From Escherichia coli (lineage in GTDB: Bacteria > Pseudomonadota > Gammaproteobacteria > Enterobacterales > Enterobacteriaceae), in assembly GCF_003334255.1 (NCBI RefSeq), contig NZ_QOWU01000023.1: DNA of 64,000 nucleotides; one strand, written 5' to 3'. Positions 27,492-28,164 of this stretch are shown here, in pieces. A program made the translations under genes and the position numbers. Below the pieces are notes generated by a model. The model searched no databases, had not been told where the DNA came from, and saw nothing but the letters and a program-made list of their open reading frames with translations. Every line of letters starts with the position of its first letter. Position 1 is the stretch's first letter.

Positions 27492-27576
27492 GGTGGGGTT
27501 CCCGAGCGGCCAAAGGGAGCAGACTGTAAATCTGCCGTCATCGACTTCGAAGGTTCGAATCCTTCCCCCACCACCA
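27492..27576 (+). tRNA. tyrT: tRNA-Tyr (anticodon GTA), copy 1
   Basis: 85-nt sequence GGTGGGGTTCCCGAGCGG...CTGTAAATCTG...TTCGAATCCTTCCCCCACCACCA with a long variable arm and encoded CCA. Confidence 0.97.
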
Positions 27577-27785
27577 TAATTCACCACAGCGATGTGGTAA
27601 CTTCGGTGAGATTGTGAAAGTTTGCACTCATCGGGGAAGGGTGAGAACCTTCGACTAAGGTTCGATTCGAGCGAAAGCGAGAGAACGTTGCCACAGGCAA
27701 CGGCCCGAAGGGTGAGGAGCGAAGCGACGAATAATCCTTCCCCCACCACCATCTCAAGCATTACCTCAAAATTTGAATTACCCCT

Positions 27786-27870
27786 GGTGGGGTTCCCGAG
27801 CGGCCAAAGGGAGCAGACTGTAAATCTGCCGTCATCGACTTCGAAGGTTCGAATCCTTCCCCCACCACCA
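27786..27870 (+). tRNA. tyrV: tRNA-Tyr (GTA), copy 2
   Basis: Identical 85-nt sequence, 294 bp downstream of copy 1. Confidence 0.97.
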
Positions 27871-28079
27871 TAATTCACCACAGCGATGTGGTAACTTCGG
27901 TGAGATTGTGAAAGTTTGCACTCATCGGGGAAGGGTGAGAACCTTCGACTAAGGTTCGATTCGAGCGAAAGCGAGAGAACGTTGCCACAGGCAACGGCCC
28001 GAAGGGTGAGGAGCGAAGCGACGAATAATCCTTCCCCCACCACCATCTCAAGCATTACCTCAAAATTTGAATTACCCCT

Positions 28080-28164
28080 GGTGGGGTTCCCGAGCGGCCA
28101 AAGGGAGCAGACTGTAAATCTGCCGTCATCGACTTCGAAGGTTCGAATCCTTCCCCCACCACCA
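28080..28164 (+). tRNA. tyrV: tRNA-Tyr (GTA), copy 3
   Basis: Identical 85-nt sequence, 294 bp downstream of copy 2. Confidence 0.97.

Follow-up and report, generated by a model that had tools for sequence, protein, structure and literature searches.

The 64-kb window, by which we mean the whole stretch of Escherichia coli DNA that was analyzed, carries the classical tyrT operon with three tandem tRNA-Tyr genes at the locus where K-12 has two. We regard the array as a rare copy-number variant, arising repeatedly, of a textbook tandem repeat; it may instead be an assembly error, and it is no new kind of element. On balance, we lean toward a real one-unit expansion of the operon by unequal exchange or slippage.

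Architecture of the tyrT array

The only tRNAs that ARAGORN finds in the 64-kb window are three tRNA-Tyr genes (anticodon GTA), located at 27492-27576, 27786-27870, and 28080-28164 (+); the Rfam tRNA matches (RF00005) coincide with these genes. By both methods, they encode a class II tRNA with anticodon GTA and the same sequence as K-12 tyrT/tyrV. A script comparison showed that the 85-nt genes are identical (3/3), with starts exactly 294 nt apart; the MG1655 locus holds two exact copies of this 85-nt string, and the window holds three. According to TRF, the repeat at 27482-28344 has a period of 294 nt (2.9 copies) and is followed at 28146-28704 by another array, of 178-nt units (3.1 copies). 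The original prediction, made from the letters alone, had described three identical 85-nt tRNA-Tyr genes starting at 27492, 27786, and 28080 on an exact 294-bp period, and ARAGORN, Rfam, TRF, and the script all bear it out.

The first copy (27492-27576, +) occupies the tyrT position, has its CCA encoded, and matches both MG1655 genes over its 85 nt. Spacer 1 (27577-27785, +; 209 nt) contains an RtT element at 27620-27751 (Rfam RF00391, 132.9 bits). The middle copy (27786-27870, +), identified by ARAGORN, Rfam, and the script comparison, lies in a spacer-tRNA-spacer context that is possible only in arrays of at least three copies. Spacer 2 (27871-28079, +; 209 nt) has its RtT element at 27914-28045, and the third copy (28080-28164, +; same three methods) sits in the tyrV position and leads into the 178-nt repeats. 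Both spacers begin with TA and end in the 10 nt GAATTACCCCT; that they are identical, as also predicted, was confirmed by the script comparison, in which each additionally equals the single MG1655 spacer. Two exact 294-nt units cannot have arisen by chance.

Upstream of the array lies purU, encoding formyltetrahydrofolate deformylase (26490-27332, +), with its TAA stop codon visible at 27330-27332. Its PGAP annotation was transferred from the locus of Origami2-DE3, which differs from the window by 2 mismatches in 7551 aligned positions, neither of them within purU. A promoter scan (10/12) identifies a site at 27414-27441 (+) with TTTACA and TATGAT separated by 16 nt, a TG extension, and a following GC-rich discriminator, GCGCCCCGC; we take this to be the classical tyrT promoter with its GC-rich discriminator. 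It is the sole site upstream of or within the array, neither spacer having one, and the single other match of the scan falls downstream of the array at 28748-28775. Beyond the array, narI (28882-29559, −; annotation transferred from the same Origami2-DE3 locus) converges on the operon, and a terminator scan places a terminator-like hairpin at 28863-28842 on the − strand. By synteny, this position between purU (+) and narI (−) is that of tyrT-tyrV in MG1655 and DH10B. The tRNA-Tyr1 genes of the tyrT operon are the supF/su3 locus; a supF suppressor allele was ruled out here, as all three anticodons are GTA.

The second tandem array (28146-28704, +) comprises 3.14 copies of a 178-nt tRNA-linked repeat, the partial terminal unit included, as established by TRF, Rfam, and unit-by-unit comparison. 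Each unit opens with the last 19 nt of the tRNA. The first unit (28146-28323, +) is identical to MG1655 R1, and the second and third (28324-28501 and 28502-28679, +) are both identical to MG1655 R3, with the partial unit following. Rfam places the downstream RtT elements at 28211-28342, 28389-28520, and 28567-28698 (+), which brings the total to five, one per spacer and one per 178-nt repeat. Inside R1, we read by eye tpr, a 29-codon protamine-like ORF (28232-28321, +; ATG at 28232 and TGA ending at 28321), which lies at the same distance from the last tRNA as does tpr (b1229) in MG1655.

Elements of this type, the tRNA-linked repeats (TLRs), were first described at the tyrT locus, and their function is not established; an early stringent-response claim for rtT has since been withdrawn (PMC8144298, where the work of Egan and Landy 1978 and Rudd 1999 is summarized). 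The spacer elements and the 178-nt repeats of the window are TLRs: all are Rfam RtT matches, and each begins or ends with a copy of the last 18 to 19 nt of the tRNA that precedes it. They hold no novelty and act here only as passengers and as extra recombination substrate.

Copy number in K-12, near relatives, and other E. coli genomes

The statement in the original prediction that K-12 has two genes at this locus, tyrT and tyrV, proved correct for MG1655, DH10B, DH1, and J53, and the natural isolates G1/2 and 184/2aE, which are nearly identical to the window around the array, likewise have two. In the MG1655 annotation, tyrT and tyrV are 294 nt apart and flanked by purU and narI. When one 294-nt unit is removed from the window, the remainder is colinear without gaps with MG1655, G1/2, and 184/2aE, and there is no novel junction. 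The only array differences from MG1655 and G1/2 that then remain are nine clustered substitutions at 28356-28443; compared with 184/2aE, the window minus one unit shows 2 mismatches in 7257 nt, both outside the array. The K-12 operon (tyrT-tyrV-rttR/tpr) therefore has the same locus, promoter, 85-nt tRNA, and 209-nt spacer as the window, along with the same first 178-nt repeat carrying tpr and the same partial terminal repeat, but it contains two tRNA genes and four RtT elements where the window has three and five, the difference being one extra unit of tRNA plus spacer.

The nine substitutions turn the second 178-nt repeat, which in K-12 is a distinct R2, into a copy of R3, so that the repeat order is R1-R3-R3 in the window and R1-R2-R3 in MG1655. 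A distinct R2 is present in MG1655, DH10B, DH1, G1/2, and H10407. Among the loci typed, 184/2aE and one of the two J53 assemblies combine R1-R3-R3 with just two tRNAs. Neighboring repeats may have undergone gene conversion, or polishing of the assembly may have produced this homogenization artificially.

In ≈39 kb lying outside the array, 10 SNPs and no indels separate the window from K-12, and the consensus quality of the window is accordingly high. Positions 1-25000, compared with 5,426 RefSeq complete E. coli genomes, have no match at 100%, the best reaching 99.9%. To judge from its sequence, the window derives from a very close relative of K-12 that is nevertheless not K-12, because a prophage integrase adjoins ompW and only a single ldr/rdl unit is present. 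The prophage is seen at positions 1-1609 of the window as the end of a lambdoid element (exonuclease, excisionase, and integrase) next to ompW (≈1642-2280, −); we recognized it through the annotation of the near-identical G1/2 locus, and K-12 has no prophage at the ompW site. The ldr/rdl toxin-antitoxin unit lies between chaA and kdsA at 44400-45300, with rdl at 44950-45015 (−). MG1655 has three such units there (ldrABC, period ≈535 nt), the window being ≈1.07 kb shorter. Because the single-unit allele is matched at 100% in at least 19 natural genomes, G1/2 included, it is an ordinary polymorphism.

We then turned to copy number across E. coli genomes, a comparison that the original prediction had proposed. 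The probe was the 503-nt spacer-tRNA-spacer segment, which gives a contiguous match only where a middle copy exists, and it was run against 5,426 complete E. coli genomes. Regular three-copy arrays were found in ≈11 distinct genomes of the 5,426 (≈0.2%), counted among the best 60 probe matches, in which three-copy arrays with more diverged spacers may be missed. Two copies are the usual state and one copy is common: in a separate sample of 60 matches spread over the ranks, 47 of the 60 had two copies and 12 had one, as does, for example, FDAARGOS_1077 (one tRNA and three RtT elements).

Single-piece, full-length matches to the probe came from four laboratory strains, namely Origami2-DE3, XL1-Blue (CP081007), XL10-Gold, and "TOP10" (CP080620), and from the natural isolates GF124.3, ETEC H10407, EcPF16, GF4, ET474, CH4784, and O157:H7 F1273. 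SEC470 also matches, with a record of the same length as that of H10407, and is listed with it. Nine of the arrays were checked on sequence (H10407, GF124.3, GF4, ET474, CH4784, and the four laboratory-strain assemblies); EcPF16 and F1273 are assigned three copies by annotation together with the single-piece match. Like the window, H10407 (NC_017633), GF124.3, GF4, ET474, and CH4784 show the order tRNA-spacer-tRNA-spacer-tRNA on a 294-nt period.

These public three-copy arrays differ from the window in spacer alleles, flank haplotypes, and the number of downstream repeats. The three-copy genomes that were fetched have three spacer alleles: the K-12 type, present in GF124.3; T47C, in H10407, which resembles the window in having three downstream repeats; and A192G, in GF4, ET474, and CH4784. 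Within each genome, both spacers carry one and the same allele. Flank haplotypes also differ among the three-copy genomes, and the RtT elements downstream of the last tRNA range from one to four. The R1-R3-R3 order is absent from the other three-copy genomes typed (5/5; H10407, GF124.3, GF4, ET474, and CH4784). Because three spacer alleles are each shared by both spacers within a genome, the gains would be recent and independent, and the pattern is the one that would be expected of several such duplications at a locus that often gains and loses units.

Two further sets of loci were handled apart from this count. MB51 was rejected as a three-copy genome; the probe matches it in a single piece at 94%, but its array stops at two tRNAs, with an RtT element of the spacer type next. 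In 23CRST047 (AP045820; positions 2085-3003 of the locus), three tRNA-Tyr genes are irregularly spaced by 644 and 190 nt, in the order tRNA, three spacer-type RtT elements, tRNA, 105-nt gap, tRNA, and two downstream repeats, and 23CRST049 has the same two-piece probe match. We counted the 23CRST047 arrangement separately; in it, tRNA, spacer, and repeat modules recombine beyond simple unit gain.

The third copy might also be real and yet have formed outside the lineage of the window, either as an older three-copy state that its relatives lost or as an import by homologous recombination. A deletion from three copies to two, with 381 nt of homology, is mechanistically easier than a gain, and GF124.3 combines three copies with a K-12-type spacer and very similar flanks (8 SNPs in ≈35 kb). 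However, GF124.3 is no closer to the window than are two-copy G1/2, 184/2aE, or K-12, and shared descent of a three-copy allele in the two was rejected on the 35-kb flanks, in which two-copy genomes are equally close. The downstream repeats of GF124.3 differ as well, consisting of R1 only. Moreover, two copies are the overwhelming state in every background sampled, and the three-copy genomes are scattered singletons, F1273 being the sole O157:H7 genome among the three-copy matches. We consider an older or imported third copy very unlikely. As a separate observation, GF124.3 and 184/2aE have most flank variants in common over ≈35 kb, whereas their arrays read three tRNAs plus R1 and two tRNAs plus R1-R3-R3, respectively; either the array changes fast or it is noisy in assemblies.

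Laboratory-strain assemblies that share the array

The closest counterparts of the window array are in assemblies of cloning strains. Over 1551 nt, the array is 99.9 to 100% identical to those of Origami2-DE3 (CP084529), XL1-Blue (CP081007), and "TOP10" (CP080620), which have three tRNAs, identical spacers, and the R1-R3-R3 order, as in the window. XL10-Gold (CP081008) has the same three copies and spacers, with its downstream repeats interrupted by a rearrangement. The flanks of Origami2-DE3, "TOP10," and XL1-Blue carry K-12 alleles, unlike the window, for example T at window position 28950. Borrowing of a reference sequence was ruled out as the source of the laboratory-strain arrays by these K-12 flank alleles and by the differing start points and orientations of the records.

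These assemblies matter because the combination of three tRNAs with R1-R3-R3 occurs, apart from the window, only in K-12 laboratory-strain assemblies of what appears to be one batch. CP080620, CP081007, CP081008, and CP084529 are neighboring accessions with an identical metadata style, which suggests a single submission batch. At least two K-12 lineages are represented in the batch: Origami2 is rssB wild type, whereas XL1-Blue, XL10-Gold, and "TOP10" have the Trp-to-stop allele of rssB that belongs to the DH1/DH5alpha lineage (52 genomes). Shared descent of the arrays is therefore excluded. Among the matches listed, three copies are found in 3 of the 52 genomes with the DH1-lineage rssB allele, and all three come from the batch. 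Furthermore, the batch is contradicted by independent assemblies that combine two tRNAs with R1-R2-R3: a second XL1-Blue (CP132550), the parental DH1, and DH10B. The simplest reading of the batch signature is that it is technical.

Synteny is also lost exactly at the array in XL10-Gold and in BL21(RP), another assembly with this metadata style. In XL10-Gold (CP081008; 3135-3530 of the locus), the RtT element is followed not by narI but by tRNA-Cys, tRNA-Leu, and yecA (cysT-leuZ-yecA), and in BL21(RP) (CP084683; 2639-3111 of the locus), it is followed by a truncated SDR-family gene and araE in place of narI. Each breakpoint may be either an inversion through dispersed tRNA-linked repeats or a misassembly at that point. 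The "TOP10" record (4.51 Mb) carries the rssB Trp-to-stop allele, which is typical of DH1/DH5alpha and absent from DH10B, and it may have been assigned to the wrong strain.

Since the window has this signature too, there is a circumstantial case for the assembly artifact that the original prediction had named as its refutation, and the artifact is a serious rival explanation here. On this account, the real genome has two copies (tRNA-spacer-tRNA), and the nested 294-nt and 178-nt repeats were resolved wrongly during assembly or polishing, which added a unit and possibly rewrote R2 as R3. That the R2-to-R3 change alone separates the two J53 assemblies is a further hint of technical noise. Against it, long reads readily span the whole array (≈1.4 kb), the usual assembler error at such tandem repeats is collapse, with expansion being rare, and we identified no assembler behavior that adds exactly 294 nt. 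The window consensus is otherwise clean, with no indels relative to K-12 in ≈39 kb, and its other tandem array, ldr/rdl, exactly matches a common natural allele. Three-copy arrays also come from unrelated projects, including that of ETEC H10407, which we take to be a capillary-sequenced finished genome. Finally, R1-R3-R3 accompanies two tRNA copies in the close natural isolate 184/2aE, and that part of the signature may thus be an allele of the lineage. Weighing these points, we regard the artifact as quite possible, though short of probable.

A more radical interpretation accepts all of the assemblies and takes the three-copy state to be real and not neutral. In that case, tyrT would be a locus where dosage switches fast: natural lineages and cloning stocks alike would keep acquiring a third tRNA-Tyr1/RtT unit, which selection would favor for a time. 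The four laboratory assemblies would be correct, XL1-Blue stocks would truly differ, and the gain would be coupled to R2-to-R3 homogenization through one recombination-prone state of the array. We think this highly improbable.

Origin of the third unit and its meaning

The original prediction had attributed the third gene to copy-number expansion by unequal crossing-over. The structural part of that claim stands: the window has exactly one unit more than its relatives, with no new junction, and arrays of one, two, and three copies exist. That the third copy is real in this genome is only somewhat more likely than not, and the recombination mechanism, like expression of the third copy and any effect at the tRNA level, is something that we infer.

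In the expansion that we favor, either sister chromosomes would have recombined out of register or replication would have slipped, giving a two-copy progenitor one additional 294-nt unit of tRNA and spacer. The likely substrate would be the identical 87-nt segments, each consisting of the 85-nt tRNA and one flanking base on either side, that lie 294 nt apart. Such an exchange would yield a three-copy and a one-copy product, both without a new junction. The observations agree with a unit gain: the increment is an exact integer unit without a novel junction, the relatives have one unit fewer, and the deletion product is present in the population, the one-copy arrays being the reciprocal product that unequal exchange predicts. 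A recurrent origin is likewise consistent with duplicated units that are identical within a genome and different between genomes.

On its 5′ side, the middle copy would be flanked as tyrV is, and on its 3′ side as tyrT is. Because both contexts are already in use and the operon is a single transcription unit, this copy is expected to be transcribed and processed like the others. Each transcript would then yield three tRNA-Tyr1 molecules, not two, and contain an additional RtT element. With a third copy in place, further unequal exchange could draw on 381 nt of homology where 87 nt had been available, and for this reason the three-copy state is predicted to be unstable and short-lived unless selected, which fits its rarity and scattered distribution.

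The elements of this account are familiar. The tandem pair, its unequal recombination, and the TLRs have long been known, and three-copy alleles are annotated in public records such as NC_017633. Unequal recombination at the locus was reportedly analyzed by Russell et al. in 1970 (J Mol Biol 47:1) in the classical genetics of the su3/supF doublet, and the classical papers also include Egan and Landy 1978, Rossi et al. 1981, and Bösl and Kersten 1991. A search of the accessible literature returned no paper on three-copy tyrT alleles or on copy-number variation at the locus. TOP10 has been taken as having tyrT and tyrV only, in a study that does not address copy number (PMC2887954).

A parallel is provided by serTGA of Pseudomonas fluorescens SBW25, for which two reports describe changes in tRNA gene dosage by tandem duplication (PMC7661048, PMC10954465). 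The likeness is that tandem duplications arise spontaneously and shift tRNA copy number, so that the tRNA gene set is flexible at the level of the population. The SBW25 events are large-scale duplications in laboratory populations, whereas the gain in the window would be a single 294-nt unit inside an array that was already there, and nothing points to selection.

The variation is ordinary whether the third copy is real or an artifact. The nested 294-nt and 178-nt repeats give discordant structures between assemblies of the same laboratory strain, and copy-number calls at the tyrT array are untrustworthy without spanning reads. The further suggestion in the original prediction, that tRNA-Tyr gene dosage is changed, holds to the extent that the extra gene lies inside the single tyrT transcription unit and should raise tRNA-Tyr1 dosage; it depends on the third copy being real in the genome. 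If that copy is real, the tRNA-Tyr1 genes of the operon would go from two to three (a 1.5-fold dosage), with one extra RtT element, and the total of tRNA-Tyr genes would presumably go from three to four, tyrU lying outside the window. In that case, the array would illustrate, on a small scale and in nature, how bacterial sets of tRNA genes are reshaped when tandem arrays gain and lose units.
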